DNA of 64,000 nucleotides from a virus (Duplodnaviria; Caudoviricetes): IMG/VR virus record IMGVR_UViG_3300020049_006862, positions 32,001-96,000 of that record; one strand, written 5' to 3'. This document shows, one piece after another, positions 156-64,000 of this stretch. The notes below the pieces were generated by a model. The model had not been told where the DNA came from and ran no database searches. It saw nothing but the letters and a program-made list of their open reading frames with translations. Both the position numbers and the translations under genes were made by a program. Every line of letters starts with the position of its first letter. Positions within the stretch are counted from its first letter, which is position 1.

Positions 156-1130
156 ATGACTTTCACAGACTTTTATACACCATCAAAACAAGAGATCCTT
201 AACAAAGTAACCGAAGAATCTATCTTCGAACATTTCTTAAACATAGCAGTAGTTCCTGGGCTTATTAATAGCCCATTCAGGCCGGATTCAAATCCATCCT
301 GTTCCTTCTTACGACTTAGAAATGGTGTACTTTGCTTAGTTGATTGAACTAACTATAATTTCATAGACTGCTTCAAAGCAGTGGCTATGAAAAGGAATTG
401 CCATTACAATGAGGCAATAAGAGCTGTCTATGAAGCTATGGATCAGCTACGCCCGACTAAGATTGAATTCACAAATAACTCCGACAATTATTCACTTAAG
501 ATTAAGCTCAAGGAATGGGACGAGGAATCTAAAGCATATTGGCGCAGGTACTATATTAGTGATAATACTCTTACTAAATTTTCGGTATATCCTGTAAGAG
601 GAGCTTCTATGTCTAGACCAGAATATACTAAGTCTTGGAAATGGTCTAAAGAAGAGCCTATGTTTGCCTATCTTAGAATGAATGGCATCAAACTATATCG
701 TCCTCATTCTGATAAAAAAAGTAAGTGGCGTTCGTCTAATTGGGGAGACGCGCTATTTAATTATCACAATCTTCCGCCCAAAGGTGATGTTCTTATTATT
801 ACTTCTTCCGCTAAAGATGCTATGGTTCTAACCGAATGCGGTTTCCATGCTGTAGCCCCTCCTTCTGAGACAGTTAACATTCCAGAAGATATTGTTGCCG
901 AGCTTAAGTCTCGCTTCTCTCATATCTTTATCTTTATGGATACAGATGAAGCTGGCACTAAAGCCAATATTAAGTTATCCAATATTTTTAATTGTTCCTA
1001 TATTATCATACCTAGTAAATACCACAAAAAAGATATTTCTGATTTTATTTATAAACACGGCCCAGTCAAAACCTTTAGATGCCTAAAGCAATGGATGGTC
1101 CGATCAACCACGAAAAATTATGTCTATTAA
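156..1130 (+). CDS. DNA primase (DnaG-like; Zn-finger-like N-terminus plus TOPRIM), 324 aa, one TGA=Trp at 345
   Basis: ORFs 156..347 and 381..1130 join in frame through TGA (LVD-W-TNYNFIDCFKAV). Motifs SPFRPDSNPSCS, LIITSSAKDAM, FMDTDEAG resemble crAss-type primases. Confidence 0.88.
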
Positions 1131-1275
1131 CGAGGAAAGACTTGCTCAGGTTAAGTCTATGATGGAGACTATCCAAAGAGTCATTACAGATCCGGAAATG
1201 CCTGAATTTCTAAGAGAAGATTTGGAACGCCGGGTTGAAAATGCGCGAGATCTTTTAAATGATATAAAACTTTAA
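1120..1275 (+). CDS. Small hypothetical protein (51 aa)
   Basis: MSINEERLAQVKSMME...DIKL* fills the primase-UDG gap with tight spacing. Confidence 0.6.
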   Translation: MSINEERLAQVKSMMETIQRVITDPEMPEFLREDLERRVENARDLLNDIKL

Positions 1276-1277
1276 TT

Positions 1278-1928
1278 ATGCCTACTAATTGGTCTTTAAT
1301 CGAAGGTCTTAAACCTGCTTGGGATTGTTTTATAACGAAAATATATCCTGAATTCATACAAATGGATGCTCAGAAAATGTGCCCACCACCTCAGAAAGTA
1401 CTTAGAGCATTGCAGGAAACTGATATGGAGCAGATAAAAGTGGTAGTTTTGGGAATGGACCCTTATCATAACGGAGCTGCAACCGGGCTCTGCTTTCATG
1501 TAGAGGAAGGTGCTAAAATTCCTGGATCATTAAGAAATATTCAGAGTAAAATATACGAAGAGACTGGGCAAAAAGGAGATTTAGCTTCGTGGCCAGGGCA
1601 AAATGTGTTAATGTTAAATACGGCCCTTACTACTCAAAGAGGTGTGGCAGGAGCAAACATGAAATTATGGGAACCTTTTACTGAAGAAGTACTGAGGTAT
1701 TTGGATACACAAGACGATATCGTATGGCTTCTTTGGGGAGCTAACGCAAGAGACATAGTGAAGAGGATTATCAAGAATCCGACTCACCGATTTATCATTT
1801 CATCACATCCTTCTCCACTGAGTTATCATAAGCCTCTTGGGAAATATCCTGCTTTTAAGGATAGCGTTCCCTTTGGAAAGGCGAATAAGATCTTGGCGGA
1901 AAAAGGTAAAACACCTATACAGTGGTAG
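1278..1928 (+). CDS. ung: Uracil-DNA glycosylase, family 1
   Basis: Motifs KVVVLGMDPYH, ATGLCF, SLRNI, VLMLNTALT, LLWG, SHPSPLS. Confidence 0.95.
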   Translation: MPTNWSLIEGLKPAWDCFITKIYPEFIQMDAQKMCPPPQKVLRALQETDMEQIKVVVLGMDPYHNGAATGLCFHVEEGAKIPGSLRNIQSKIYEETGQKGDLASWPGQNVLMLNTALTTQRGVAGANMKLWEPFTEEVLRYLDTQDDIVWLLWGANARDIVKRIIKNPTHRFIISSHPSPLSYHKPLGKYPAFKDSVPFGKANKILAEKGKTPIQW

Positions 1929-2419: not shown

Positions 2420-2421
2420 TT

Positions 2422-3228: not shown

Positions 3229-4532
3229 TTACCGTATCGAAACATCAGAGTTCTCTAAAGGAGTCGAAGCTGTTTGAAAGGCTTGATCATTATATGCGAA
3301 AATTGGAAAATGATCCTTCTAATTTTTTAGAAAGAAGTCTGGCCAGTAAAAGAGCTGGAGGGAATCTGAAAATTATAAGAGAAAAAGCTTTTGAAACTCT
3401 TTTAGGCATTTTCGAAAGGGATGATATTTTCAAGCAGGTTACATGGGCAACTGAAGATGAGGCTAACTTAATCATTAGGACCAATATTCACAGAACATTA
3501 GGAGCCAGTATGGATGATAACATGCAGCCTTTTGAAGATTCAGGAATACTGTTTTATCAAGATGGTGTTGTAACGAACTACGCTGAACTCGCTAAGACTT
3601 ACGACATTCCGTATATACCAGGAAGACACTCAGATGCTTATGTTGTGTCTCAACTTTTCTTTAAGTTCGGTGAAGAAATTTTCCAATACTTAGAAGGAGA
3701 GTATGCTTTTGTTTGGACAGTTGAAGATGAGATCTTTACTTACAGTAACATCCCATTCTATATCTACCGGAACAATGAAGAATTCCACCTGACAACTTCT
3801 GTCGTAGTTAGTAATTTTCTACGGACTCTGATTCAATCCTTTCCTGAAGAAGAGCAGCTGAATTATGAAGTAATTGATGAGAAAGAACCGCTTATATGGA
3901 TACATACCGAACATAATGCTCAACCGGAATTAAGTCGCACCTACCCTAACACTTTTAATTTTCATTACTCAGGAATAGGAAATAGATTGTTAGACATTGA
4001 TTTCAAGGAGAACTTGACAATGAATGAACAAGGAGCTATAGTACCTGCGGTAGATAGCTTACCTGTTGTGTTGGAGAAAGGAAAGCTCATGTTTTGGAAT
4101 AAAGATAGATGGGTAGATTTATACACGTACATTACAGTATGTACGGACGAACCTGTCATTTATCCCCTTTATTCCGGGGCGAAATACGAAGTGAGTATTA
4201 CTAGGACTACGTTGAAAAAAATAGAAGCTTCCAACAATTGGGAACGAGCTTTATTTAATAAACTAAGCTTTGATCAATACCGGAAGTATTTTAAAGTGCC
4301 AGAAGTATTGCCTACCTATGTACATCCAGCAGAAGATGAAAAAGAATCATTGTTTGTACTTCTCATAAGAGCGCTTGCTAACTGTCCTCGTTACGAGGAT
4401 TCGTTTCAGCAAGGTATAGCTATCTTAGGAGTCGTGTTCAAAACGATGATGGAAAATCATGAAGATAAATCTGCTCGCCGAATCTACAAGGTACTAAAGA
4501 GATTACATGACTACATAAAAGACAAGCAGTGA
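3225..4532 (+). CDS. Class II glutamine amidotransferase-like protein, apparently inactive
   Basis: NMQPF...FYQDGVVTNYAEL...HSDA...LEGEYAFVW parallels the GATase-II pattern NAHPF...HNGxIxN..EL...DSE...GxYA; no N-terminal Cys. Ends at TGA in a TGATG overlap. Confidence 0.6.
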   Translation: MITVSKHQSSLKESKLFERLDHYMRKLENDPSNFLERSLASKRAGGNLKIIREKAFETLLGIFERDDIFKQVTWATEDEANLIIRTNIHRTLGASMDDNMQPFEDSGILFYQDGVVTNYAELAKTYDIPYIPGRHSDAYVVSQLFFKFGEEIFQYLEGEYAFVWTVEDEIFTYSNIPFYIYRNNEEFHLTTSVVVSNFLRTLIQSFPEEEQLNYEVIDEKEPLIWIHTEHNAQPELSRTYPNTFNFHYSGIGNRLLDIDFKENLTMNEQGAIVPAVDSLPVVLEKGKLMFWNKDRWVDLYTYITVCTDEPVIYPLYSGAKYEVSITRTTLKKIEASNNWERALFNKLSFDQYRKYFKVPEVLPTYVHPAEDEKESLFVLLIRALANCPRYEDSFQQGIAILGVVFKTMMENHEDKSARRIYKVLKRLHDYIKDKQ

Positions 4533-5635
4533 TGGAAACCTACAGAGACATAACTTGCAAACTCAGATCAACAACACCGTTTACCGTTAGCGGTAAAACC
4601 ATTACAGGCAGAGAGGGGAAGTTTGAATTCGACCCTTTGAAAGATGCAATGGTGAATGGTGTCTACGTAAAAGGTGTTACTCTCGAGCTACTTGAGGATA
4701 AGCCTTGGAACCACAATGTATATATGTATGCTGATCCAAAACTACATTTAAATATTGATCAGGATACAATTGACCGAAATAAGATGTTCTACTCCAGCCA
4801 GATTACTGGAAATCCTAAGTTTGTATACGATAAGCCTTACGTAACTTTGAAAAAAGAGTACGAAGGATTAAAGTATTTGACTGAAAAGATAACAACAATT
4901 TGGAGTAGTGGAGTGAATCAATTGTATCCGAACGAAATTCTGTACCGGTTAGGGGGACACTTAAACATAGACATTACTGGCTATTGCGTGAAAACAAAAG
5001 ATTATTATGATCCTACCATTTTTCAAGCGGTTCATCAGTTGTCTGAATTTATCCAGTCAAAAGGATCTTACCGGAGAAACTTCGTCAAAGTTCAAGGACT
5101 TACTGCCCACGAATTAGTCGCAGTTTACACAACATTTTGGAAAGTGCAGGACGCAATAAGAGAGTTTATTCCTCCTTCACTTTGCGCAAAACGGCAACCT
5201 TTCTTAGGAAACGGTCATGATGATTTAATCTTGAAAAGATGGCGTAAGCTGTCCGCTCTCGATTCTCAGTTTCCGCTCACCATCGACTCAGATGGTGCAG
5301 TGACATTTAGCTCCCACCCCGCAACGCCCTGTTGCTTTAGGACAATCGCCTGGCTAACTATCTGTTTAGCCATTGTCCAATACGCTAAATATCATTCTGA
5401 CGAAATCATCATATCCGTAGCTATGGGGTACAAAACTTCCCTTACTCGCGACATACTGAAGTGGGCCGAACAACAATGCACTACTACTGAAGCTACTGAA
5501 TTGCTTCAGAAGATAACTCGGTATGTTCATAACGAAAGTGACGAGCATATCCGAATATTGACCGAAGTACCTCTTCCACAAAGAATGAGATACTACGAAG
5601 ATAATTATTTTGATAAACCCTATAATGAAATATAA
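4529..5635 (+). CDS. Amidoligase (COOH-NH2 ligase)-like protein with degenerate motifs
   Basis: GGHLNI corresponds to CGxHVH; AVTFSSHPAT..FRTIAWLTICLAIVQYA corresponds to TxEFRxHxxT..KI..W..IC.A.V.YA; gene context agrees. Confidence 0.55.
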   Translation: MMETYRDITCKLRSTTPFTVSGKTITGREGKFEFDPLKDAMVNGVYVKGVTLELLEDKPWNHNVYMYADPKLHLNIDQDTIDRNKMFYSSQITGNPKFVYDKPYVTLKKEYEGLKYLTEKITTIWSSGVNQLYPNEILYRLGGHLNIDITGYCVKTKDYYDPTIFQAVHQLSEFIQSKGSYRRNFVKVQGLTAHELVAVYTTFWKVQDAIREFIPPSLCAKRQPFLGNGHDDLILKRWRKLSALDSQFPLTIDSDGAVTFSSHPATPCCFRTIAWLTICLAIVQYAKYHSDEIIISVAMGYKTSLTRDILKWAEQQCTTTEATELLQKITRYVHNESDEHIRILTEVPLPQRMRYYEDNYFDKPYNEI

Positions 5636-6014
5636 GAATAAAATCAGTGGAGGCTTCAGATCCGGACTTGAAGAATGATGCTCGGAACACCTACACAAAA
5701 ACGATATCAAATTCTGGTATGAGGGTAAAAAGTTTACTCTTGTACCAGGATTTGAATCGACTAGTCCCTCATTTGAAGTAGTCGGAAAAACTAAGAAATA
5801 TAAATCAGTTACTACTAAGATCCGTCCAATAACATATACGCCCGATTTTGTCGGGGATTCTTGAGTAATAGAGACTAAGGGATTTTTAACCCCTGACGCC
5901 AAACTCAAATGGAAGTTATTTAAAAAGTATCTAACTGATAATAAGATATTTTGTCTGTTATTCATGCCTAGAAATAGGAAGCAGATAGAAGATACAATTA
6001 ATACTATATTATGA
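5625..6014 (+). CDS. Endonuclease I-like / PD-(D/E)xK resolvase-type nuclease (missing from ORF track); TGA=Trp at 5676 and 5862
   Basis: FRSGLEE-W-C...YE...ITYTPDFVGDS-W-VIETKGF...LKWKLFKKYL. Third TGA (6012) lies in an ATGA overlap with the next gene; read-through would end at 6068. Confidence 0.85.
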
Positions 6015-7036
6015 AACACTGAGAAGATCCCAAAAGGTCAGAAATCTATTATCAAACTCCTGGAATAAGCAACTCGCTTCTAAAGCTGGTTAGCACTCCT
6101 CTACTTCTTCAACAGAAATTAAAAGGCGAGCATGTACAAGCTGACAAAGAACATTTTAGAGTAGGAAAGGCTATCGACTGTTTACTTACATCACCAGAAC
6201 TCTGAGAAGCAGAGTTTGATGTAGTATCAGCTGAACGTCCTTCCGGTCTCTTAGGCCTCTTTGCAGATAACTTGCCAGAAGGTCTAACACCTCTCTCCTC
6301 GCTCGAGCTATACGAAGAAGCATACAATGCTTCGGGCTTCAAGCTTCCACTAGAAAGAGTAGTTAACATCTTCTGATCTAAAGGTGATAATGTATTTTAC
6401 TATGAGAAAAAATACGAAAAATCAAACAAAACCATCTTATCACGAGGTGAGATGGAGAAGGTCGAACTTGCAGTAGATCAGCTAAAGAAGGCTGATTATA
6501 CACACAAGTATTTTTGGCCTGCTGATAACACACGATTGATTACTCAAGTACCCATATACTTTAAGTACAAAGATTTAGATTGTAAAGGCCTTCTTGATGG
6601 CATCGTTATTGATGACGAAAAGAAAACTATACTTCCGTATGATTTGAAATCGTCTTCTTGGGGAATTAGAAACTTCCCTCTCGTTTATAAAAGATTTAAA
6701 TACTATAGACAAGCAGCGTTTTATCAACACGCTGTTCTTAATCATTTTATTCCAGAAGAAAATTTACAAGGTTACGAACTATTACCATTCACTTTTATAG
6801 TGACTTCCTCGAAACGAGGAATACCGGAAATGCCTATTATCTATAAAGTAGAATCTCAGGACTTCAGATTTGGTATGCAGGAAATAGATGACGCAATAGA
6901 ACAATATAAGTGGCACGTAGAGAACAACTACTTTGACATGTCTAAGGAGCAGTTTGAAAACAGCTCCGAATATTGGGTTAGTTATTTTTCACCCTCGAAA
7001 GAGGATCAAATCTTTGAAGATGAAACAATCAGTTAA
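6011..7036 (+). CDS. PD-(D/E)xK exonuclease (RecE/ExoVIII-like), 341 aa; TGA=Trp at 6020, 6203, 6374
   Basis: Continuous frame from ATG 6011 (ISNSLLK, FRVGKAIDCLL) into track ORF 6452..7036 (KGLLDGIVID, YDLKS, YYRQAAFY). Confidence 0.85.
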
Positions 7037-7259: not shown

Positions 7260-7261
7260 CG

Positions 7262-7495: not shown

Positions 7496-7519
7496 AAATA
7501 TAGTGTAGGTGATGAGAGG

Positions 7520-7552
7520 AGGGGTAGCATCGAAAGGTGTTGCCCCTTTTTT
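7520..7552 (+). terminator. Rho-independent terminator
   Basis: GGGGTAGCATC-GAAA-GGTGTTGCCCC followed by TTTTTT. Confidence 0.85.
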
Positions 7553-7604: not shown

Positions 7605-8105
7605 ATGGAAAAAAAGAAATTGAATAAGAGTGCAGCCTTCGTGTTGCCTCGGACTGGTTTGGATTATACCAAGTTGGTAGGGTTGGGAATCGATAATACT
7701 TATTTGTTCTCGACAAATTCAACAGAACCAGAGATGCACGTAGTGGTCAGTTCTACACTGACTCCTGAACAAGATCAATGAATGAAAACTGCTGGAAAGA
7801 ACTATAAAGAAACACGCACTCATCAGGAGAAGCCTGTGTACGTATACTCTTTCACGGAGGAGGACCAAAAGAATATTGTGACTCCGTTTCTCAAAGGAAA
7901 GTATTCAGAAATTGATCGTGACTATGTAAAAACATTTGACCGTTGGCAAGTTGTTGACGGTTTCTACGAACCCTCTAAGACATACATGATCTTTACTAAA
8001 GATACTCGTCTGAAAGAAGATTGGGAACAAAAGATTGGAGTGGAATTCACAGATGAACAAGAGGTATGGTCTCGACCTTTAATCGAGAATGAAACCTTAG
8101 CCTAG
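7605..8105 (+). CDS. Hypothetical phage protein, 166 aa; TGA=Trp at 7779
   Basis: ATG 7605 (MEKKKLNKSAAFVLP...) is in frame with track ORF 7782..8105 across one TGA. Confidence 0.75.
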
Positions 8106-9132: not shown

Positions 9133-9474
9133 ATGGCAATCGAACTTAAAGATTACGACAAACCATTCATCATTGTTCTTCCAGACCCGTTCTCAGAATA
9201 CGGATATTTGGTAGCATCAATCTTATTTCCCGTTGCTTGGGAAGATCCAGACCTGAAACCTGAAGGAGACAAAATTGCTCCTTTGGAAGAATGCGGGCAG
9301 ATTGAATACATGGGAAGAACGGACGAAGAGAACTTTGTACTTTATGCTCTCACTACACTTGATGAAGATCGAATTCCTCAAACCAACACATACGAAACCA
9401 GAGAAGAGGCTTTGGAAGCCGCTACGAACGTTATTCGTAACCTCGGTTACACTGGCGAAATCCTGGAGAAGTAA
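9133..9474 (+). CDS. Hypothetical protein
   Basis: 113-aa ORF with a TAATG overlap to the next gene. Confidence 0.7.
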   Translation: MAIELKDYDKPFIIVLPDPFSEYGYLVASILFPVAWEDPDLKPEGDKIAPLEECGQIEYMGRTDEENFVLYALTTLDEDRIPQTNTYETREEALEAATNVIRNLGYTGEILEK

Positions 9475-9824
9475 TGGACTTGGAAACAGCGTTAGCATCA
9501 ATTAACGATGAGAGTCTCTGGGACCTCGTGGATTACCTCGAATGCCAGACAAAGATAACTACTCCTCCAGCACTACATGCTTTAGTGGAATTAACCTACG
9601 GATGCGAAGAAATGAGCAATGCTTGGGACATTGCTCAGGAAGTTTTTGGAGAGCCGGTAGAAAATTGTAAATTTTGTCCTATTGTCCACCCAATGATAGA
9701 AAGATTAAAACCTGTAGTCATTGAATGGATAAAAACTGTAGACTGGGGATCTGAAAAAGAAGCATTTGAGCAAGAAGACGACGAAGAACGCGAACGAAAC
9801 GCATCGGAGGGCGGAACACAATGA
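9474..9824 (+). CDS. Hypothetical acidic protein (CxxC)
   Basis: 116-aa ORF; ends at TGA in an ATGA overlap (9857 if read through). Confidence 0.65.
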   Translation: MDLETALASINDESLWDLVDYLECQTKITTPPALHALVELTYGCEEMSNAWDIAQEVFGEPVENCKFCPIVHPMIERLKPVVIEWIKTVDWGSEKEAFEQEDDEERERNASEGGTQ

Positions 9825-9943
9825 AATATGGTCGAATTCCAATTTCACGAGAGCTAATTAGAAATAATCAGCTCTTTTTCGGGTTGATCTGGAATTACCA
9901 ATGGAATGACCTTCGAGAAGTTCAATTCTATTTAACCCAATAA
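9821..9943 (+). CDS. Small hypothetical protein (40 aa)
   Basis: MKYGRIPISRELIRNN...YLTQ* runs from the ATGA overlap to the terminator. Confidence 0.45.
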   Translation: MKYGRIPISRELIRNNQLFFGLIWNYQWNDLREVQFYLTQ

Positions 9944-44973: not shown

Positions 44974-44974
44974 A

Positions 44975-49466: not shown

Positions 49467-49471
49467 TTGTT

Positions 49472-53526: not shown

Positions 53527-54509
53527 TATTCGATAATTTTAGAGTTTATCTCCTTAACTAGATCTTCAATAATGGTAGCTTTCTTTGGATTGAGAATAAA
53601 GTTGATAGCCTCCGCATAAGTTTCTCCAACAACTATTGGGCCTGTTGCCTTGTTGTAGGTATAACTGCCTTGCTTCTCATAAATGATGCGGCAATCTACC
53701 GCCCTTTTAAGCAGGTAGCGAGCTTCAATTTCATCGCGTCCAGTGGCTGTTTGCATTAGTACATATAACTCTTCGAACTTGTCCAAGTTCGAACCTTGAT
53801 TAAATGTTGTTTTGTCGATAAATGAGAAAAGAATGTTGTGTATTTGTTCTTTGGTAAGATTAGTTCTAGAACTAGCTTGATCCAAAACAATAACAAATCT
53901 CTTTTTCATTTCATCGGTCATCTCAAGTGAGTGCAATGCTGCAAAAGCTTTAGACTTGCGTTCATTCTTTTGGTACTTCAATGAATCTTCTTCACTTTCC
54001 AGAGCAATATACCATCTTGCATCCGGCCATTTATGCGCACGATATTCGGTTTCGGAGTTTGCAATAAACTTAGAATCCAGGTAGACATAATAAGCCATAG
54101 CATCATCGAATTTAGATAGATCTAAAACTGTGCAGCCGTCTTTTAATTTCCAGGATGTTCTTTGGAAGTAAGTCCATTTGTCTTCTGGTAATTTCCACTC
54201 CGCTCTTTGAAGAGGCCGGTTGGTCAAATAGCCCTTGGGCAAGCCCCAACGTTGCTCCTCACGATCTTGGAGAGTCAGACGATTGTTTTCAGTATCAGTT
54301 TTTTGAATTCCATTTTCTATTCAAGGCTTGTAAGATAGTCCATTTTTCAGACCACCGTGTTGAGGGGAATAAAAAGCCTGTACACCATCTTTGCAGTGAC
54401 CCATTTTAGTCTTTTTAAGTTTCTTCCCCGTAGAAGAGCTAATCCACTCTGATAAACCTGTTGCAGTTTCTCGAGGGACGCTGTAAATAAATACTTTACT
54501 GTTATTCAT
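53526..54509 (-). CDS. Conserved crAss structural protein, 327 aa; TGA=Trp at 54321
   Basis: ORFs 54321..54509 and 53526..54242 join in frame; LKDG.TVLDLS and G.T..EAINFILNPK motifs. Confidence 0.75.
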
Positions 54510-54520
54510 ATTAGATTTTT

Positions 54521-54877
54521 TTACTCCTTCTCTTTTTTGGAGTCCTCATCCGTAATTTCGGAGAGTATTTTTTGTGCTTTCTTTGCACTTATCACTGTAA
54601 GCTTCTTGACTATGGCTAATGCCCAATCAATTAAGTGCATACCTGTAAGTCCAACTAAGAAAGCTACACCATCGTTTAGTTGGTTATATTCTGCTTCTAG
54701 AACTCTAGAAGCTAAGTGACTTAGCGGATCAGTAAGGTATGCTGCCATAAGAGTACCGGAAAAAATATAACTAAAGGCTAACCAAAAGTTCATTTTTTGT
54801 TTACTCCGCAGCAGCATTACCGTACCACCTGCTGCGCCCGCTAGAGCAGCATTTAATTTCATGTTTAAGAAAAACAT
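54521..54877 (-). CDS. Putative holin-like membrane protein (three predicted TM segments)
   Basis: AGAAGG.V, FSGTLMAAYL, VAFLVGLTG hydrophobic segments; charged C-terminal tail. Confidence 0.55.
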   Translation of the reverse strand: MFFLNMKLNAALAGAAGGTVMLLRSKQKMNFWLAFSYIFSGTLMAAYLTDPLSHLASRVLEAEYNQLNDGVAFLVGLTGMHLIDWALAIVKKLTVISAKKAQKILSEITDEDSKKEKE

Positions 54878-54909: not shown

Positions 54910-57900
54910 CTAGTCAAAATCATAAATCAATTCCGGGATTTGTTATCGTAAAGGCTTTTTATCCTCTACTTCTTACACTTCTTGTTCGTGTAAGTCCAGC
55001 ATATATTTTCCCTCTATAAAGAGGGTCGAGCACTCGTGGGAGAATTATATTTATTCATCTCCTATGCGTTACACTGTTTCTGAACCTTTCGTAATTTCAG
55101 AACTTAGCACGGTATTGGGAATCTCACCGTTCACCGTTTTTGCTCGATTTTTGACTGAGGCAAATTTCATAAGCCTGATTATATAGTTGTTAAATTCTTC
55201 GAGACTTGAATTCGATTTAGCCCTATTGCAGAATTTGCAAGATGGGGCAACATTGCCTTGAACATACCCTTTAGAAGAGTCTATTCTGTCAACGCCGTTA
55301 TGAGGTATTGAAGCTTGGCAATTTGTTTTCCTGTGTATCTGTGAAGGTTTGATACCACAGTAAGAGCATGGACTAACTATCAGAGAACGAAACTCATCTT
55401 GAGTTATTGTAAATTCTCTATTATCTTTTTTTGCACGGGCACGATAACGAACATATAAACCTCTAACATCACAATCATAAGGATCTGTGTAGTAAAATTT
55501 ATGTATATGTCCACAAGATTTGGACTTAAGATTTTTTACCGCGTCCCATTGCACTTTAAATATAGTGCCGCAAGAACATTTAACTTCCACTACAGGAATT
55601 TTATAATCTTTAAGTTTATCTTTTTTTAATGTGTATCCAGGAAAACTAAGAACTGTTAGTTCATTATATTTAAGTCCTATGAATTCTTTATAATCAGTCG
55701 TATTGTACATTTCGCTTTCAACGAAATTTTTAGGTTGTTTTTTTAATTTCAACATTTATTACAATAATTTGAGTTTTGTACATACCACAGCGTGTTACGT
55801 CTTTGATCCAGATACCAAAAGAGTCCTGTACAAAGATTTCGTAAGCACCGATTAAGCCAGCAACAGAAGCACCTTTAGCAGGGCCTGTTGGAGTCCAGGT
55901 ACCGTCGATGTGTCCCCAGCGGAAAGTGTTCTCAGTTTTCAGAACAGAGATGTTGTTGTCAACACCGTCAGAACCGAAGTCCAAGAAAGTCATACGCATA
56001 GAGTCAATTGGATACTCAGGGTATTGTGGGTGCATACGCTTGCAAGCTTTACGAGAATCGTAAAGTGGGTTACGCATAAGTGATACCTCAATACCTTCTG
56101 GGCCGTACATGGACCATTCGCATGAGCTCGTTAAACTCATACCGTACAGTTGTATCAATTCTGTACTGCTTTATGTTGCCATAAAGATTAGACTATATCA
56201 TCCTCAAAAATGAGGGTTCCCGTTTCGAGCCACTTGGCTCTACCATTATGTAAAGATTTTAAAGTAAGAGGTTTAATTCTAAGTTTGTGCTGCATAGAAT
56301 CCACTCTTCGGACATAAGGTTCTACTATTTTTATAAATTTTCTTGCTTCTCTAGTGCCACAACAAAGTTCGTAGTAAGCATTCTTTTTAACTTGATAAAA
56401 ACTAACTTTTCATACTTCATTAAAGTAATCTATAATTAATTGATTTTCTTCCTTAGATATGTTGGTATGAAGTCGGAGCATTGTTGCTCTTGTTGAACCA
56501 TCAGGATATTTTAACATCCCTAATGAGCCATCATCCATGTATCATATTGCAAGTCCTAAAGCATTGAGCTTATTTAACTGTTTGCGATTAGCAATTTTTT
56601 TAACTGGTCTATATAATATTTTTCTATATAGCTTAGTAAATTTATAAACGTTAGTTGTAAACCGATAAGCAGGAAAACCGTTAGATGTTAGAAATTTAAT
56701 TTCTGACGTTTTTATACCAGATTTTCTTAACAATTTAGCTTTCCATTCCAAGTAATCTTTCTGCTTTTCACAGTGCTGTACTCGGAGCTGTCCGTATTTA
56801 TCTAGGTTCCCATCTCCTAATATCATACTTAAGAATAAGTGTCGGGATTTTTCTTTAATCTTTGTCATACAAGTTCGAATACATATAGTATCGATTTTTT
56901 ATTTTTTAGTCGTTGAACCTTCCTCCTATAGGAGGCTTGGCTGCTGATTGTCCCGGAGGGAGATCCCAGCAATTAAAGAACTTTAATCACTACCACGGAG
57001 TAGAAATAGTGAGTGTACTGCGCACCAAAAGAAAGGTGGCGTGGGTCGCCATCGCCAGCAGAACGAGTGAAGTGGCTATCTACAGTCAAGAAAGAAGAAG
57101 CTTCGGAAGCGAGCATGTCGTGGAACATTATTGCAAAAATCTTCGAGTAGAATCGTTAATTCTACCCCGGCTTTTTTAAGCCTGCTATATATTACTATAT
57201 AGATGAGATCATATCATCCTCTTCAATTGAAGAGGTTTCCTGTTTCGGAGCACTTGCTCCTACTCCCTTTCGGGATGATCGTTGAGCGTCATACTTAGAA
57301 ATCCTTTTGCATTGAATTAAAAACTCTTTGACAGTTTGATCTCTTTTCATATAATTACAAACATTGCAACAAGCTACCGAATTATCATCAGTATAACCGC
57401 AAGTGTTATCCATTCTGTCTACTCCATTATAATATAATGGGTCTCCAGTTAGTTTATCTTTACGACTGTTTGATTTTGTTTTGCCGCAATAAAGGCAAGG
57501 AGAAAGTATTAGTTTGGTAAAAACTTCTCTTGAGAGTTCAAAAGAGTAGTTACGATCTAAAGATGCTTTCTTATAAGCATTATAGATGTATCTATATCTT
57601 TCGACATCTGTTCTGTTATCCCTATACGTTTTTACAGAACAAGAATTACAACCTACAAAACCCCTTTTATCAAAGTATCTTTGCTTATAAGCAAGATCTT
57701 TAGAAGTCATAGAAAGTTTTTTACCGCATGAACATTGTACTTCTCAAGTACCATGCCCATTATCTAACCACTTGGTTATTGTTAATTTTCCTAGTTTTTG
57801 TCCTAATTTCATTTGTATCATAATAAGTATTTTCGTTGCTGATTGTCCTCCTATTTCTAGGGTGGGAGATCCCAGCAGTTAAGGAAATTTTTCGACTTAC

Positions 57901-60022
57901 CTCACGATAAGAAGGGCCCAATGTGTTAAGCCTAATGTACCAGTGATCGCAGTTACTTTACGATTGTTAACGTTTTCACGAGAGAAGAAGATATCCATCA
58001 GATAATCTTTCAAGCGAGAAACAGTCAAAGCAGAATTGTAATATTCGCAATTATTATTATTCAGTTAGAGTCGTTAATTCTAACTCGGGAATGGTTACCC
58101 AGCTCATAGTTTCCTATGAGATTAGACTATATCATTTTCCTGTAGATGTTTATCTAAGGAAATTTCTCATTTCGAGTCACTTGACTCTACTCCCTTTCGG
58201 GATAGTCGTTGAAGGTTCCAATCATAAATTTTTTCTATATGCTTAAGAAAATCTTTAGGAGATTTAGTATACTTAGCTAGATTACAGTTTTGACAACAAG
58301 GTACTACATTATCTTGTATGTATCCTAAATTGTTGTCAAGTCTATCTATTCCAGTATAATTATAGGTCATTAGTGATGTTCTAATACAGGTATTAGTTGG
58401 TTTATCTCCACAGTATACACAAGAAGACGAAAACAATTTCGCTGCCTCCTCTAATGATAACGTAAATTCTAAACCTCTGTTTTTAGCACTTTTCCTATAT
58501 CTACAATATATAGTAGAATATTTTTCAGCACTGTTCATCTTTTGATCTCTTAAGAAGTCGTATCTACATTTTTGACATCCTGCAAAGCCTAGCTTTGCTA
58601 ATGACATACACGCTCTTGAAACAAAAGTAGTCGGGCCTTTAGCTGTATTTCCACAAGAACATTTTAGTATATATTGTCCTTTGTGACCTATTACAGTAAA
58701 TTCACCTATTTTAGTGCCTATTGGATATTTCATAATTTATTTTTTAGCTTCCCTGCTGATTGCCCCTATTTTTAGAATTGTTACAGTTTATTGTATCTAA
58801 AACTTAGCGGGGGGTCCCAGCAATTAGAGAAATTATTCGATTACTATTACTAGTAAAAGGGACCAAATATTAATCCAAGAATCTTTAAGTTGTTCGCGTA
58901 CACCTGGCAGTGTGTTGTTCCCTTTCGTTCGTTAAACGAAAGGCGTACTATCCAACTTTAAATAGTACTGCCTTATATTACTATAAGGATCAGGTCATAT
59001 CACCTTCCTATTAGGAAGTTTCCCGTTTCGGATTCACTTGAATCCTACGCCATAAAGGCTGACCGTCGAACGTTCCCTTTTCAGGGCTTCGCTGCTGATT
59101 GTCCTCTTCATAAGAAGTAGGAGATCCCAGACAATTAGAGAAATTTGCAATATTGTATTACTACAATATGGGGCCCAATTTGACCCGTTTTGATCCAGTA
59201 GCCTGACTGCGAAGGACGAGTTTGCTTGATACCTAACCAACCTTGATATTCCTGAGACATGTACATTTCAGAGTACATGCGAGATTCAGCCATAGGAAGG
59301 AAAGAGTTAACTTTCTTCATCTTCTGAGTGTGAGGATCAGTGTACAGGAATTCTACGCCCAATCGGCCGCCTTCTCTCCAAGCTTTGTCAGTGATCGTCA
59401 GTTTCTGAGCGAATTCACCAATTTGGCTTTCCAGTTTGAACAGGTTAGGAGATTGTTGTGTACCGAAGTATGGGTTAGCTTCTTGCTGAACAGAGGTCCA
59501 TCCTTTAGAAAATTCACGACCTACTTCCAAAAGTGAAGGAGGGCAGAAAACTGTAGGATTGTCACCTTGCAGTTCGAGGGTGTAGATGTAACCTGTGCCA
59601 TCTGGAACAGAATCACCGATGATAGCCATCGGGTAAGAGTTATCTTCACCAAGCAGAACATCTGGTTGTGCGTAATAGTCGATGTCCAATTTTACACGGA
59701 AACGTGTATTGTTTAAGCCCGGAGCGTCGTTGCCTGCTTCGAGATTCTCGAGAACAATAGCAATACGTTCTTCAGCTCCCTGCATAGTCCAGCGGAACAC
59801 ATCGCTGTTGATCATTTGAACATTGCCTGGGTTGATACCTTGAGCAGTCAGCAATTTACCTGTGAACAGGTCTGACTGAGAAGAATAAATTTTTGTGAGG
59901 GTGCCCATGAATTCATGCGGCTTGCCCGTGTCATAAGCAGCGCCAAGATAATTGGAGTCGATAAAATTACCCCCAAATCCTTGGTAGTGCTTGATAATCA
60001 TGTTACTTCTAGCGCTAGCCAT
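54910..60022 (-). CDS. Major capsid protein, 489 aa after splicing six exons: 60022-59183, 58907-58873, 58047-57929, 57133-57006, 56107-55784, 54933-54910
   Basis: Exons join in frame (IKTG|PGVREQLKDSWI|EYYN...TGTLG|SIMFH...FGAQYTHY|YGPEGIEV...DVTRCG|ELIYDFD*). Position follows portal and scaffold genes. Confidence 0.9.
54934..55783 (-). mobile_element. Group I intron 5 of the capsid gene (850 nt; endonuclease ORF in the P1 loop)
   Basis: 5' exon ends in U, intron ends in G; P1 CTGTGGT/GCCTCAG, P3 TCGAGC/GCTCGA, P7 GCATA/TATGC. Confidence 0.8.
55069..55755 (-). CDS. Intron-encoded HNH-type homing endonuclease
   Basis: CSCG, CSYCG, NGVDRIDSSKGY..GNV..C..CN.AK. Confidence 0.88.
   Translation of the reverse strand: MLKLKKQPKNFVESEMYNTTDYKEFIGLKYNELTVLSFPGYTLKKDKLKDYKIPVVEVKCSCGTIFKVQWDAVKNLKSKSCGHIHKFYYTDPYDCDVRGLYVRYRARAKKDNREFTITQDEFRSLIVSPCSYCGIKPSQIHRKTNCQASIPHNGVDRIDSSKGYVQGNVAPSCKFCNRAKSNSSLEEFNNYIIRLMKFASVKNRAKTVNGEIPNTVLSSEITKGSETV
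56108..57005 (-). mobile_element. Group I intron 4 of the capsid gene (898 nt)
   Basis: P1 CACTAT/GTAGTG, P10 TACGG/CCGTG, AATTGCTGGG...AATCAGCAG core, P7 GACTA/TAGTC, terminal G. Confidence 0.88.
56188..56868 (-). CDS. Intron-encoded LAGLIDADG homing endonuclease, 226 aa; TGA=Trp at 56542 and 56410
   Basis: SMILGDG, Q.DYL.WK and LGLAI-W-YMDDGS motifs. Confidence 0.88.
57134..57928 (-). mobile_element. Group I intron 3 of the capsid gene (795 nt)
   Basis: P1 GGCT/GGCC, P10 CAAT/ATTG, P3 TTTCCT/AGGAAA, P7 GATCA/TGATC, terminal G. Confidence 0.88.
57195..57821 (-). CDS. Intron-encoded HNH-type homing endonuclease, 208 aa; TGA=Trp at 57744
   Basis: GQKLGKLTI...GT-W-EVQCSCG N-terminus joins track ORF 57195..57710 (CLYCG, NGVDRMDN..GY..DN..ACC..CN.MK). 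Confidence 0.85.
58048..58872 (-). mobile_element. Group I intron 2 of the capsid gene (825 nt)
   Basis: P1 GGAT/GTCC, P10 CGAATAT/ATATTTG, P3 TTTCTC/GAGAAA, P7 GACTA/TAGTC, terminal G. Confidence 0.88.
58122..58733 (-). CDS. Intron-encoded HNH-type homing endonuclease (ends 58167 if TGA is a stop, 58122 if Trp)
   Basis: CSCG, CVYCG, GIDRLDNNLGY..DNVVPCC..CN.AK. Confidence 0.85.
58908..59182 (-). mobile_element. Group I intron 1 of the capsid gene (275 nt, no ORF)
   Basis: P1 GGGT/GCCC, AATCAGCAG core, P3 TTTCTC/GGGAAA, P7 GGTCA/TGACC, terminal G. Confidence 0.88.
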
Positions 60023-61046
60023 TAGTTACTTGTTGTTTTAAAATAGTCGCTCAATCGATAGATTTTTGTGCTTGTGTAGGATTAGAGCTGCCCCCTACTT
60101 TAGCTTTTACTGAAGAGACCTCGCCTAACTTACTTTTTAAGTCTTCGAGGGCTACTGATTTTCCTTTAGATGTGAATCGACCGAAATCAAATCCAGTCTT
60201 TGGATCATATTCTGATATGATGTCTGCTAATTGAGCCAGGTGATCGTAATTACTAGAAATAGTATTCAAAGCTCTAGTGAAATCTGTTGTAGTGATACCA
60301 TCACGCGTTACAGGATTAATCATAAATGCTTTTAACTTGTTTTTACGATCATCAGGAATACTAGGAAGTTTTTCTACTGCCTGTGTAATACTTTCCCGAT
60401 ATTGTTTAGCTGCAGCTTCCTCATCTTTAAGAAGATTGTCTTGAGCTGCTTTGTAAATACCTTTTAGTTCTTCGTAAGCTTCTTCAGCCTCATCAGCCAA
60501 AGATTCAGAAAGCTCTAAAGAAGATATTAACTTATCAATCTTAACGTCAGAATAATTTCCAGTCTTTTTATAATAATCTCTAAGTATCTCTTTTTGAGTA
60601 GAGACGTTATCCAAATCAACTTCTTCTAAGGCAGAAACTTTGGTTTGGCGAGCATAGAACTCATCAATATGTTTCCCGCCCGCCATAGCGTATTCTGCAA
60701 TAGCGTGAAAACTTGGAGGCAACGAAGAAATAAGACTTTGAGCTGCTTCTGCTCTAAGACTAGTTTTAGTCTTATTCAAAGATTCAGCAATAGTTTTTAA
60801 ATCTACCTTTTCAGGTTCTTCATCGTCTACAAGAATGTTTTGTGATTTTAGGAGATTATATATGTCTTTGTAATCTGTTTCGTCCTCATCACTGTCGTCA
60901 TCTGAAGGATCTTCCGGTTCAGGAGTAGGTACGGGATTATCGATGTCGTCTATAATAGGATCATCATTTCCTAGTCCAGAAAAGTCAGGATCGAGAATCA
61001 TCCCGAAGTCAAAGACATCATCTGGTACTATATTTTCGTTATTCAT
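60015..61046 (-). CDS. Acidic scaffold-like protein between portal and capsid genes (343 aa if TGA 60051 is Trp)
   Basis: Asp/Glu/Pro-rich N-terminus and helical core; read-through gives SID-W-ATILKQQ overlapping the capsid gene start. Confidence 0.7.
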
Positions 61047-63418
61047 TATTTTGTTGTTGTTTTAGGTTTAGATGCAGAGATCTTCTCTCGAGATTTCCTA
61101 TCTAATTCTTTTTGTTTAGAAGCTTGTTCAATCTTCCATTTTTCCATAGCCATGCTGTCTTCATGGATCATTGCCTGAAGCTGGAGCTTTCCTTGATCGG
61201 AATCGTTCGCTGCTGCGATAACTCTTTGGTTCATCATCTTCTCACGTTCGAGCTGCATCATAGCTTCAATCTGAGCTTGTTGTGCTTCTTGCTGAGCCCT
61301 AATTTGCTCCATCTGCTGCTCTTGGAATTTCTTCTCAGAAGCTTCAATATGCTTTTCGAGTTGAGTCGAAGACGTAGCTTTGTATAATTTAATAAGGTCT
61401 GAGAAGTTTGCTTTGTCATTTTGAATAAGCGGCTGAGCCAGATTCTTCAAATCACGGAACAGTGCTTCATCATCAACTAAAGAAGAGACAAAAACAGCGA
61501 TATCCGCATTTGTTAAATCATCAGGACTTAACTTCAAGGTTTGAATAGACAAATCATCCAGCACATATTGCTTAATAATCGACTTATTTCTCCAACAAGA
61601 GATAGCACACTGTACTAAACCATTCAAAACTTCTTCCCAAATTCTTTCGTGAGGATAAAAATAAACAGATTCAGTAATAGTAGCGCTCTGTAAGATATTA
61701 GCTTGAGCATTAGAAACAAGTTCAGCGGAGCTGATCTGCCCTTCACGCTGTCTAGTAATACCAGCAACATCAGAAATTTGAGCATCAATAGCATCTAAGA
61801 TGTTGATGTAATTTGCAATTTGCTGCGTATTAGACATATCTATAGACTGGGATACCATGCCTCTATTGTATGTACCTGCCTCTTCAGCATTACTAAGAGG
61901 ATTGAAGAATTCTATATTCATCTGTTTGAGATAATAAATAGTCTTCTCTAAACCAATTTTATCTGAGATTTGAGACATGTCAAACTTGTATACCTTACCC
62001 TGATCTGTAGCAATAAGCTTCTTAAACTTATCCATAACAATCAAGTACAGATACTGGAAAGGACGCATACGATCCATTAACGAAACATTAGGTCCGTTAA
62101 GATTATTGTAAACGCAGCCATAATAGCCGAGGCTTACTTCGTACGGATTGTCTAATGATCTGTACTGGTATTCTTTAGGGCCAATATGACAGTAAATATC
62201 GGAACCAATTTTCACCGCTTGCCAAATTTGTGGAATCCATTCCCATTCTAAAGAATAGTTTTCCCAAACATATTTAGTAATTTTGTTACCCCAATGATTC
62301 TTTTCTATTGTTTTTTCGGCGGTAGCCGGAACAACAAAATCCTCAGAAACAATGTCCATTTGCTTGTCACCATATTCGTTAGTGTAAGTAATGAATCCTA
62401 CTTTCTGTAAAGATCTCCATTCTACATGCACTACAGGAATATCTCCAAGCAGAGGATTGGAATAAGCGCCTTGAATGTCGTGGTCTCCAGAACCATTTAA
62501 GTAGTTATCGTAAACATCTCTGGTCCGAACTGGAGGTTCTTTTTTGTAGAAATCTGGAAATTCGTCCATTACTCCACTTAGAGAACCTTCTAATTTTTCA
62601 ATTTCCTCTTCCGTTAGGTCATCATGAAATTGATCTATGATGTCTGAAGCTACCATTTTAGCTTTATAACCAGCGAATAAACCTTTTTGAACATACTTTT
62701 CATCCATACCTTTATAATAAAAAGTATTTAGAGTATTGAGTATTTTTACAGTAGGTTCTCCATTAATTACGCCAACCCAGATCATCTCGTCGCCGCCAAT
62801 TAAACCGTGTTTAAATCCTTCATTCTTTTTCTCCTTCAGATTATCTTTTCTAATAAGATATCCTAAGATGTCTGAAGCTAATTTTTCTCGAGCTTCTTGA
62901 TAAGTAAAGGACATATAGTGTTCTAATTCAGCTGGATCTACGAGACCTTCTGTATTTACTTCTTCGTCAGATTGTTGAATCTTTTGTACTTCCGCGCTAA
63001 TTTGCGCATTTAAGTATTTTTTTAACAGCTCCTTTTTGTGCAATTCCTTAGATCTGATGCCGTCGGAGTTAACCAAAACTGTTCTGTAGCGAAAAGGTGT
63101 TTTTAATTCCTCTCCAGTCAAAATTCCGATTTTATTCGGAGTCTTGTTGTAAGGCATAATCTGATCTTCAAACTGTCCAACTTCTACGCCAAAAGGATTT
63201 AACTCACGTTCAAAATCTTTTTGATTAATTACGTTGTTGTACAGTTGGTAGTTAGCATACTTTCGATCATAATCTGTGTTACCACCAGGAGAAGGAGAGA
63301 AAGTATTAGAATATTGAACAATGTGATCAACCATCAGTTTTGCCCACGCAAAATCATCTTTACTTTTTTCCGCGTAGCTAAGCCGCTGCTTTGGAAAAAG
63401 CGTATTCATGTTCGTCAT
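61046..63418 (-). CDS. Portal protein
   Basis: 790 aa; FPKQRL, NYQLYNN, L.GEE, W.S..KVG, EWEWI..IW, SLMDRM.PFQYLY, GITRQREGQI. Confidence 0.92.
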   Translation of the reverse strand: MTNMNTLFPKQRLSYAEKSKDDFAWAKLMVDHIVQYSNTFSPSPGGNTDYDRKYANYQLYNNVINQKDFERELNPFGVEVGQFEDQIMPYNKTPNKIGILTGEELKTPFRYRTVLVNSDGIRSKELHKKELLKKYLNAQISAEVQKIQQSDEEVNTEGLVDPAELEHYMSFTYQEAREKLASDILGYLIRKDNLKEKKNEGFKHGLIGGDEMIWVGVINGEPTVKILNTLNTFYYKGMDEKYVQKGLFAGYKAKMVASDIIDQFHDDLTEEEIEKLEGSLSGVMDEFPDFYKKEPPVRTRDVYDNYLNGSGDHDIQGAYSNPLLGDIPVVHVEWRSLQKVGFITYTNEYGDKQMDIVSEDFVVPATAEKTIEKNHWGNKITKYVWENYSLEWEWIPQIWQAVKIGSDIYCHIGPKEYQYRSLDNPYEVSLGYYGCVYNNLNGPNVSLMDRMRPFQYLYLIVMDKFKKLIATDQGKVYKFDMSQISDKIGLEKTIYYLKQMNIEFFNPLSNAEEAGTYNRGMVSQSIDMSNTQQIANYINILDAIDAQISDVAGITRQREGQISSAELVSNAQANILQSATITESVYFYPHERIWEEVLNGLVQCAISCWRNKSIIKQYVLDDLSIQTLKLSPDDLTNADIAVFVSSLVDDEALFRDLKNLAQPLIQNDKANFSDLIKLYKATSSTQLEKHIEASEKKFQEQQMEQIRAQQEAQQAQIEAMMQLEREKMMNQRVIAAANDSDQGKLQLQAMIHEDSMAMEKWKIEQASKQKELDRKSREKISASKPKTTTK

Positions 63419-63426
63419 TGCTTATA

Positions 63427-64000
63427 CTATAAAAAATTGTCACTCGTTATACGAGCGTTCGGGAATACGAATTTATTAGCCGATATAAACTTGGTGATAT
63501 CATCCACAATTTTACTATCTTCTATAATTGTTTTCTTGTATTGATTATGGGTTTCTATTAACCCTACAATACACCCCATGAATCCCATTATGGAGTCAAA
63601 GTTGCCTTCTAAATTAAAGGCAGCCATTTCTTGTAACAAGGCCCTGTCTCAGATAAAATCTATATTTCTATATGTTCTATCGTCCCTCTCAAACTTAACT
63701 TCAAGTAGCCAGTCGCGTATGTACTGAATGCCTTCCATCTTCATAACTCTAGAAGACATCGGATAACCATAAGTTACCGAAGGCCCGGTCATAAAAGATG
63801 CTTTCTTATTAAAGATAGTAGTAGGTTGTTTACAAAGCAAGTCTAACCTCTTTATCTTTTCGAAATACTCCTTCACGTTACCACGAACATTTTCGAAGTA
63901 GATCTTTGCGTTACCATAAAACAAAGAAAGCTTGTGAAGTATATCGTTCACTATATGCCTTCCCGCGTAGGGCCTACCTCTATATACTGCAACCAATTCA
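63427..64000 (-). CDS. Terminase large subunit, C-terminal nuclease part (5' truncated); TGA=Trp at 63649
   Basis: VAVYRGRP...YGNAKIYFEN...FI-W-DRALLQEM..FN.EGNFD; directly upstream of the portal gene. Confidence 0.88.

Follow-up and report, generated by a model that had tools for sequence, protein, structure and literature searches.

Genes and sense TGA codons of the analysed region

The window, i.e. the whole 64,000-nucleotide stretch of DNA that was analysed, originates from a divergent crAss-like phage, whose 110-kb contig (AT-rich, 39% G+C) reads UGA as tryptophan. The crAss-like core genes are present, as indicated by PHROG matches to the portal (2.9e-116) and the major head protein, and the portal is approximately 30% identical to those of crAss phages. 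DNA megablast against phage records revealed short, intron-like matches and nothing else. Long ORFs are regained when the sequence is read with code 4, e.g. one of 6177 aa (window positions 9995-28528, minus strand).

Genes were called by coding potential and then curated, which yielded 51 sense TGA codons in the window, the first at position 345 and the last at 63651, the very limits given in the initial annotation. Below, the coordinate of a minus-strand TGA is that of its first base as read on the minus strand, and the letter in brackets is the base following the codon (+4).

On the plus strand, single TGAs are found in the genes 156..1130 (345, A), 7605..8105 (7779, A) and 9474..9857 (9822, A), and three in the gene 6011..7036 (6020, G; 6203, G; 6374, T). 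The gene 3294..4553 carries TGA 4530 (T) six codons ahead of its TAA; this triplet overlaps the ATG of the downstream gene as TGATG and may be a residual stop that the TAA backs up.

On the minus strand, the giant ORF (9995..28528) contains TGA at 28204 (G), 21490 (T), 21385 (G), 21319 (G) and 10873 (G), with a coding score on either side of every one of them. Two TGAs each are present in the genes 28538..30430 (30232, A; 30013, G), 30417..31016, which has no TGG (30713, A; 30548, G), and 36583..37479 (37104, A; 36684, A), as well as in a tail-protein-like gene, 39044..40909 (40267, A; 39058, G). A 1289-aa gene, 32727..36596, has three (34193, A; 33347, A; 33110, A), and a 745-aa gene, 41399..43636, has five (43282, A; 42916, A; 42610, G; 42187, A; 41506, A). 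The 161-aa gene 37451..37936 holds six (37720, A; 37690, A; 37624, G; 37612, A; 37606, A; 37543, G), and the five Trp codons of the 167-aa gene 40909..41412 are without exception TGA (41343, T; 41256, A; 41154, T; 41124, A; 41010, G).

Further TGAs lie in two genes within 44281..46450 (44919, A; 45901, A), in genes within 47815..51430 (48051, G; 49624, A), in the gene 53526..54626 (54548, G; 54323, A) and in the gene 60015..61046 (60053, G), all on the minus strand. Homing-endonuclease-like ORFs amid the pieces of the major capsid gene (56188..58733, minus strand) carry four (56544, T; 56412, A; 57746, G; 58169, G). The portal gene (61046..63418, minus strand), which served as the marker for gathering relatives, is devoid of TGA. 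The last feature is a conserved gene of 455 aa that extends beyond the window; its 3' portion (63427..64000, minus strand) contains TGA 63651 (G).

TGA is enriched in genes for tail, fibre and endonuclease proteins; the portal and capsid genes have none. The early regions of the genome (1-19.7 kb and 98.7-110 kb) are almost without it. Genome-wide, genes stop with TAA (90) or TAG (25), and TGA is not a regular stop.

Reassignment of UGA and the phage tRNA

In alignments with homologues the commonest partner of TGA codons is W. TGA stands opposite conserved Trp residues of relatives, as at 54323 (KPW) and 63651 (FIW-DR), and the invariant Trp39 of the helicase is also written as TGA.

A tRNA with the anticodon UCA is encoded at genome positions 101,326-101,432 (minus strand), approximately 5.3 kb past the end of the window. 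Rfam alignment, sequence and fold reveal a CUUCAAA anticodon loop, a cloverleaf, the A1-U72 pair, G73 and an encoded CCA. The molecule has a long variable arm and is scored as Sec-like by both ARAGORN and Rfam, and a phage tmRNA adjoins it. A tRNA(UCA) of the same type is present in five relatives (G002, G004, G005, G006 and G008); an anticodon-arm search of viral contigs gave three matches, all to unrelated contigs. With default settings ARAGORN reported a sole tRNA, with the anticodon ACA (genome 8416-8490), which was considered as the UGA reader and dropped after tRNA(UCA) turned up. A search of the contig revealed neither a release factor gene nor a TrpRS gene. UGA is translated as tryptophan via the phage-encoded tRNA(UCA), with tryptophan as its putative amino acid.

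The base following sense TGA codons

The initial annotation had claimed that sense TGA in the window is never followed by C and mostly by a purine (A 25, G 19, T 6, C 0), and that TGG-C does occur. Within the window these observations were confirmed with the curated gene set: the 51 TGAs are followed by A in 26, G in 19, T in 6 and C in none of the cases, compared with A 67, C 35, G 78 and T 30 for TGG. By the Fisher test, the two codons differ in C (p=3.9e-4), in pyrimidines (OR 0.30, p=0.005) and in A (OR 2.2, p=0.014). Beyond the window, 'never' does not hold, as the genome contains one TGA-C and C follows 10% of TGAs in relatives.

Genome-wide, the counts after TGA are A 36, G 26, T 8 and C 1 (n=71). 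C follows 1/71 TGA and 54/349 TGG codons (p=3.8e-4), pyrimidines follow 9/71 TGAs (p=8.7e-4 versus TGG), and purines follow 87% of TGA versus 68% of TGG. From the gene-specific first-position composition, 10.6 C and 25.7 pyrimidines would be expected after TGA, versus 1 (P=1.4e-4) and 9 (P=7.6e-6) observed. Outside the window the direction is unchanged (pyrimidine in 3/20). In this genome TGA makes up 24% of the Trp codons before A, 17% before G, 12.5% before T and 2% before C.

Specificity of the bias

Between positions -9 and +12, TGA and TGG differ only at +4 (p=0.002). Among all codons of the genome, TGA has by far the lowest share of C at +4 (1.4%; the next lowest is 10.5%) and of pyrimidines (12.7%; the next is 24%). 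Many codons have significant +4 biases, which fits the view that the skew is a sampling extreme without biology, one odd tally among many possible ones, codon-pair biases being common. However, the pyrimidine depletion after TGA stands after correction over 310 codon-by-base tests, and +4 alone differs both here and in the relatives described below.

The skew could also result from context-dependent G>A mutation, or from inherited ancestral contexts, whereby TGA would arise before purines without translational selection; TGA is indeed one transition away from TGG, and the genome is AT-rich. Such dependence is nevertheless not seen in other NGA versus NGG codons (C at +4 in 14.5% versus 16.4%), and the other NNA codons are followed by C in 14.8% and by A in 29%, against A in 51% for TGA. 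Avoidance of a TGAC motif, another alternative raised in the initial annotation, was rejected. The tetranucleotide is not depleted out of frame (265 TGAC observed versus 238 expected genome-wide; 302 GTCA versus 298), and C commonly follows out-of-frame TGA. Neither of the two outcomes named in the initial annotation as refuting its reading, an equal +4 distribution after TGG or an even loss of TGAC across frames, was observed.

Relatives of the phage

Relatives were gathered with the portal gene as a marker. The single portal protein found none in viral contigs, so that aligned portal homologues were needed. In the portal neighbourhood of 80 relatives C was not depleted after TGA (13/121 versus 11.9%) and there was only a slight purine excess. 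These tests were run on homology-supported sites, on site-matched clusters, and on heavy and light users of TGA separately. An all-against-all test of code-4 ORFs used a frame filter, since conserved out-of-frame ORFs otherwise contaminate it. The portal-neighbourhood tests had suggested that the bias is restricted to this genome, which was overturned by whole-contig data.

Nine independent relatives were analysed as whole contigs with an identical automatic pipeline, after removal of one near-duplicate. Their DNA is saturated (approximately 68% identity across less than 25% of the length). The base after TGA is A in 43.2%, C in 10.1%, G in 37.0% and T in 9.7% (n=227), and after TGG 32.8, 14.9, 36.0 and 16.3%, respectively (n=1513). 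Pyrimidines thus follow 19.8% of TGA versus 31.1% of TGG (OR 0.55, p=4e-4), and purines 80% versus 69%. When TGA is compared with 49,518 other NNA codons, the OR is 0.54 for pyrimidines (p=1.3e-4) and 1.95 for A (p=1.2e-6). Again, TGA and TGG differ at +4 only (p=0.002). The skew persists at least 50 codons from gene ends and without sites near start codons. Its direction is the same in 8/9 genomes; G002 shows the reverse and G003 is almost flat.

The purine preference is weaker in the relatives than here and C is merely reduced in them, so there is no 'never C' rule. The more extreme scarcity of C in our genome (1/71 versus 23/227, p=0.02) may partly stem from its having been chosen as extreme.

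These data bear on two of the alternatives. Although the absence of C was not reproduced, and the portal-neighbourhood test lacked C depletion, the recurrence of the bias outside the window and in 8/9 independent relatives (pooled p=4e-4) largely refutes a sampling extreme as the source of the purine preference; the zero-C claim is still likely to be one. As an account of the whole pattern we regard sampling as unlikely. The same skew in nine DNA-saturated relatives, together with the behaviour of other NGA and NNA codons, makes G>A mutation or inherited contexts very unlikely.

Mycoplasma phages and the amino-acid context

As a control, the annotated CDS of three Mycoplasma phages (P1, MAV1 and phiMFV1), whose hosts read UGA natively, were used. 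Their 151 TGAs showed no TGA-specific skew at +4 (pyrimidine OR 0.88, p=0.52; A OR 0.98 versus other NNA codons) in what is a small, AT-rich sample with a different tRNA.

This control is relevant to the possibility that the bias arises at the amino-acid level, i.e. that TGA sites lie in other protein environments than TGG-encoded Trp (e.g. newer, less conserved ones), where the next residue differs. The concentration of TGA in tail, fibre and endonuclease genes, its absence from portal and capsid genes, and the scarcity of Leu, Gln and His after TGA are all in line with it. However, the numbers expected from gene-specific composition are still 10.6 C and 25.7 pyrimidines, positions +5, +6 and -1 to -9 are the same as for TGG, indicating an effect of the nucleotide and not of the residue, and the Mycoplasma phages lack the skew. 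We therefore consider this explanation quite improbable.

TGA-C, TGA-T and possible residual stops

The sole TGA-C of the genome, TGA-CCT at genome position 29866, lies outside the window and encodes Trp39 of the crAss-type DNA helicase, as placed by aligning crAss helicases; no match in a PDB sequence search reached the helicase N-terminus. Other in-frame TGA-C triplets were discarded, as they belong to spurious ORFs or tRNA/tmRNA, precede a likely start or lie in a non-coding tail. Relatives likewise have TGA-C at sites of conserved Trp.

In a few cases TAA comes 3 to 6 codons after a TGA; of these four TGAs, three are TGA-T (window 4530; genome 8054 and 28553). The TGA-A at genome position 28290, just ahead of the ATG of the next gene, is a probable stop, judging from gene layout alone; a protein search with the gene ending there gave no match. 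As many as about four TGAs may be residual stops. No gene ends in TGA-C, and after true TAA stops the base is T in 44/90 cases, the opposite preference to that of sense TGA.

These sites raise the question of a true dual meaning, in which TGA would be a stop before pyrimidines and Trp before purines. The TGA-T triplets near gene ends and the stop-like site at 28290 could be taken as its traces; the latter, however, has A next, no gene end is TGA-C, and the helicase TGA-C encodes an invariant Trp. Moreover, TGA-T is found deep within the 6177-aa ORF and further genes, with coding sequence on either side. It follows that the meaning of TGA, which is a sense codon before A, G, T and C alike, is independent of context, and a dual meaning appears extremely improbable. 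Plausibly, it is the efficiency of read-through that depends on context.

Proposed explanation of the bias

Based on our observations, we suggest that the skew probably reflects selection on the 3' neighbour for suppressor decoding against termination, i.e. the classical codon-context effect. If the host uses the standard code, the phage tRNA and release factor 2 (RF2) would compete for each UGA. As suppressor decoding is known to profit from a 3' purine, TGG-to-TGA changes would be kept mainly where the next codon begins with A or G and purged where it begins with a pyrimidine. The zero C of the window would then be the far end of a graded bias and not a rule. We infer the competition with an active RF2 and assume a host with the standard code.

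The four-base stop signal UGA-C is reportedly a weak RF2 signal in E. coli (attributed to Poole, Brown and Tate, 1995), which is at odds with the loss of C here; the loss would then have to come from the tRNA side.

Selection for read-through-friendly contexts, proposed in the initial annotation, is in part supported by the restriction to +4, by the nine relatives, by the lack of skew in Mycoplasma phages and by the phage tRNA(UCA), whereas an absolute ban on C is not.

More tentatively, UGA may be incompletely reassigned, with the long-arm tRNA(UCA) opposing host RF2 throughout infection and the +4 base setting the yield of each site. The TGAs would then be graded attenuators, each tuning middle and late protein output through its +4 base, the adjoining phage tmRNA would handle failed ribosomes or products, and the few TAA-backed TGA-T near gene ends would be retained as leaky stops.

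If the skew is indeed due to selection on the 3' neighbour, recoded stops of phages remain in competition with termination and are not plain new sense codons, which would support the idea of recoding as a gate on late-gene translation. The +4 signature (A > G > T, C) could separate suppressor-dependent recoding from native code 4, and could help gene callers to tell sense TGA from residual TGA stops. The skew also agrees with the contexts favouring suppression in laboratory code-expansion work.

Comparison with known systems

A +4 skew after recoded TGA was not found reported for recoded phages in our literature search; the classical context effect is already known. Text searches of PMC7886860 and 10.1101/2021.08.26.457843 did not bring up any study of the base next to a recoded codon. 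As summarised in PMC6266110 (citing Bossi and Roth 1980 and Bossi 1983), a purine at +4 aids suppression, and a C-to-A change gives 10-fold more supE suppression. According to that account, the effect resembles ours in involving the +4 base only and in favouring purines, A above all, over C/U. It was established with laboratory suppressors and reporters, mostly for UAG, whereas here we observe an evolutionary footprint, seen in sequence only, in a phage clade that naturally uses UGA as a sense codon.

Work on the four-base stop signal (PMC5373646) likewise shows that +4 modulates termination and that UGAA binds RF2 relatively weakly, and the TAA stops here favour T; that work concerns true stops, and ours sense codons.

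CrAss-like and further gut phages reading TGA as Trp, as described in Yutin 2021 (PMC7886860), Borges 2021 (10.1101/2021.08.26.457843) and the report on Zeta crAss phages (PMC12386605), resemble our phage in several ways: TGA occurs in frame in their middle and late genes, a suppressor tRNA(UCA) is encoded, the early genes can be read with the standard code, and conserved genes contain introns. In contrast to what is described there, the tRNA here has a long variable arm and a Sec-like score and lies beside a phage tmRNA.

In the ambiguous codes of some ciliates (Swart 2016, as cited in PMC13092985) a stop triplet also occurs inside genes. According to that citation its meaning is set by nearness to the mRNA 3' end, whereas in our phage TGA remains a sense codon whichever base follows, and the bias is a matter of degree. 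Finally, in Mollicutes and their phages (table 4) TGA encodes Trp as in our phage, but the three Mycoplasma phages analysed have no TGA-specific preference at +4.

Phage identity and recoding of TGA

The window covers bases 32,001-96,000 of a single viral contig of 110,204 bp with a G+C content of 39% (positions marked "genome" follow the numbering of the whole contig). PHROG matched the portal and the major head protein, and the portal is ~30% identical to those of many crAss phages; these sequence matches place the phage as a divergent crAss-like one. Once TGA was read as a sense codon, long ORFs were rejoined from fragments, e.g. an ORF of 6177 aa (window 9995-28528, minus strand), which we take to be the giant gene (virion-protein or RNA-polymerase-like) that crAss-like phages typically carry, and in which TGA makes up 5 of 57 Trp codons. 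Where homologues were available, their conserved Trp residues faced TGA (for instance at KPW and FIW-DR sites), and Trp was the commonest residue aligned to TGA overall.

Genes were called with a coding-potential model trained on long standard-code ORFs, and both flanks of every TGA were scored. None of the 115 called genes requires TGA as a stop; the true stops are TAA (90) and TAG (25). TGA use in these genes is strongly regional across the contig, being almost absent from genome 1-19.7 kb (plus strand) and 98.7-110 kb (minus strand, including the neighbourhood of the suppressor tRNA described below), and present in the replication genes at 19.7-41.9 kb (plus strand) and the structural genes at 42-96.8 kb (minus strand). 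The portal and capsid genes have no TGA at all.

The major capsid gene is found in pieces (window 59135-60022 and 55730-56158, minus strand) within a split region (55069-60022), separated by several homing-endonuclease-like ORFs on the same strand (55069-55755, 56188-56868, 57195-57821 and 58122-58733) and accompanied by a group I intron at 58971-59192 (RF00028, 61.8 bits). A relative, L003, carries similar insertions. The segment at window 54939-55150 matches, at 79% identity, crAss-phage DNA (cr7_1 and cr131_1) that carries a large-terminase annotation, and exact copies of the segment's first 36-40 bases occur in several Staphylococcus, Clostridioides and Arcanobacterium phages; what is conserved here is probably an intron core, not coding sequence. 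Outside the window, four adjoining small ORFs of 76-88 aa (genome 28,304-29,245, plus strand) look like paralogues by eye.

Decoding machinery

A tRNA with the anticodon UCA was predicted outside the window at genome 101,326-101,432 (L005:2272-2380 in the numbering of the region beyond the window end; minus strand) from its cloverleaf fold and from Rfam, where the tRNA-Sec-like match (26 bits) stays below threshold. Its anticodon loop reads CUUCAAA and its variable arm is long; the acceptor stem spans 7 bp and opens with A1-U72, position 73 is G (G73), and the CCA end is encoded. Long-arm homologues with compensatory stem changes are present in five relatives (G002, G004, G005, G006 and G008). 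The tRNA adjoins a tmRNA (genome ~100,470-100,928, L005:1418-1876, minus strand; RF00023, 49.2 bits, with the gathering score at 47), as it does in two of these relatives, G005 and G006. Neither a release-factor gene nor a TrpRS gene was found in the contig.

With default settings, ARAGORN reported a single tRNA, also outside the window (genome 8416-8490, plus strand; Rfam tRNA, 44.8 bits), with the anticodon ACA; its anticodon stem contains a G-G mismatch, and tRNAs with A34 such as this one are uncommon.

The base following sense TGA codons

The initial annotation had counted A 25, G 19, T 6 and C 0 directly 3' of 50 read-through TGAs (position +4). A rough longest-ORF set gave A28, G19, T7 and C0 in the window, and the curated set (51 sense TGAs, 345 to 63651) essentially reproduced the count, with A26, G19, T6 and C0. 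Curation removed four dubious ORFs and five TGA positions. Three of the positions belong to a non-coding tail (genome 28290, a probable stop, plus two later TGAs), and the other two precede the probable start codon of a different gene. The distribution after TGG in the window (A67, C35, G78, T30) differs by Fisher test: p=3.9e-4 for C, odds ratio (OR) 0.30 and p=0.005 for pyrimidines, OR 2.2 and p=0.014 for A. Genome-wide, TGA is followed by A36, G26, T8 and C1 (n=71), and TGG by A115, C54, G124 and T56. Under gene-specific first-position composition 10.6 C would be expected for the 1 observed (P=1.4e-4), and 25.7 pyrimidines for the 9 observed (P=7.6e-6).

The claim that C never follows a sense TGA thus holds within the window (0/51) and fails beyond it. 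One solid sense TGA-C lies at genome 29866, where TGA-CCT encodes the invariant Trp39 of a DNA helicase of the crAss type; Pfam places the start of its DnaB_C match there, and both the start codon and Trp39 were confirmed when three annotated crAss helicases were aligned with it. As all four bases are found after sense TGAs, the meaning of TGA is independent of context. The remaining in-frame TGA-C triplets were rejected as sense codons, falling in low-scoring antisense ORFs, in the tRNA and tmRNA interior, ahead of a probable start or after a probable stop.

Some TGAs very near the ends of genes may still serve as stops, with TAA as a backup. The candidates at window 4530, genome 8054 and genome 28553 are all TGA-T and stand 4-6 codons ahead of TAA, the first overlapping the ATG of the next gene as TGATG. 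The probable stop at genome 28290 is TGA-A; the ATG of the following gene lies 11 bases further on, and a 39-codon tail of non-coding appearance comes after the TGA.

Specificity of the skew

Avoidance of a TGAC-containing motif, which had been offered as an alternative explanation, does not fit the counts: TGAC occurs 265 times against 238 expected (its complement GTCA 302 against 298), and C commonly follows out-of-frame TGA. A context-specific G>A mutational process, the other alternative, does not account for the skew: C follows other NGA codons in 14.5% of cases and NGG in 16.4%. Nor does a general effect of A at the wobble position, since the other A-ending codons retain 14.8% C and 29% A at +4. 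Among all codons, TGA has the lowest share at +4 of both C (1.4%; runner-up 10.5%) and pyrimidines (12.7%; runner-up 24%), and its pyrimidine deficit survives correction over 310 tests. When TGA and TGG in this genome were compared at 18 positions from -9 to +12, a clear difference appeared solely at +4 (p=0.002). True TAA stops show the opposite preference to sense TGA, with T next in 44 of 90 (49%).

Relatives

Portal homologues are numerous, and their alignment was used to retrieve 80 viral loci, many with TGA at Trp positions. In these portal neighbourhoods C was not significantly depleted after TGA (13/121), heavy TGA users showed a weak trend only, and several relatives had TGA-C where Trp is conserved. 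One common automatic pipeline was then run on this genome and on the complete contigs of ten relatives; two of the ten are 96% identical to each other, so nine independent relatives were counted, the remaining ones sharing <25% of length at ~68% identity. In the nine, TGA (n=227) is followed by A in 43.2%, C in 10.1%, G in 37.0% and T in 9.7% of cases, and TGG (n=1513) by A in 32.8%, C in 14.9%, G in 36.0% and T in 16.3% (pyrimidine OR 0.55, p=4e-4). Compared with 49,518 other NNA codons, the OR was 0.54 for pyrimidines (p=1.3e-4) and 1.95 for A (p=1.2e-6). Here too the pyrimidine share is lowest for TGA among all codons and the difference is confined to +4 (p=0.002), with the same direction in 8/9 independent genomes. 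The skew persists at sites >=50 codons from gene ends, and also without sites having a start codon just downstream.

On these tallies, the purine preference, strongest for A, is a property of the clade, whereas the total lack of C is not, C being reduced in the relatives from ~15% to ~10%. This genome is the more extreme (C after TGA in 1/71 versus 23/227, p=0.02).

Interpretation

The initial annotation had proposed selection for contexts that favour read-through. The purine skew, its restriction to +4 and its recurrence in relatives agree with this proposal, an absolute ban on C finds no support, and competition with release factor 2 (RF2) is what we infer. The most economical reading is that competition between the phage tRNA(UCA) and termination at UGA shaped the +4 base: most of the TGG-to-TGA replacements to survive would be those in which the tRNA is aided by the base that follows. 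In E. coli, UGA-C counts among the weak RF2 signals; if so, the C deficit would be an effect on the tRNA side. UGAA has been reported as a weak RF2 binder (PMC5373646), and PMC6266110 gives a ten-fold rise in supE suppression upon a C-to-A change 3' of the codon.

Mycoplasma phages P1, MAV1 and phiMFV1, whose hosts natively read UGA as Trp, served as a control based on annotated CDS. After their 151 TGAs the +4 base was A in 46.4%, C in 13.2%, G in 28.5% and T in 11.9% of cases, and after other NNA codons 46.8, 9.6, 25.4 and 18.2%, respectively; no skew was detected in these three phages (pyrimidine OR 0.88, p=0.52; A OR 0.98). TGA thus acts in them like any other NNA codon, in a small control that differs in base composition and tRNA.

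That crAss-like phages recode TGA is already known, and so is the codon-context effect itself. Our literature search found no report of a +4 bias after recoded codons, and text searches of the Borges preprint and the Yutin paper returned no analysis of the base after such codons. We rate the skew as a real, replicated footprint of a known mechanism: the TGA pattern of this phage matches the classical codon-context effect, whereby suppressor tRNAs read a nonsense codon more readily when a purine comes next.
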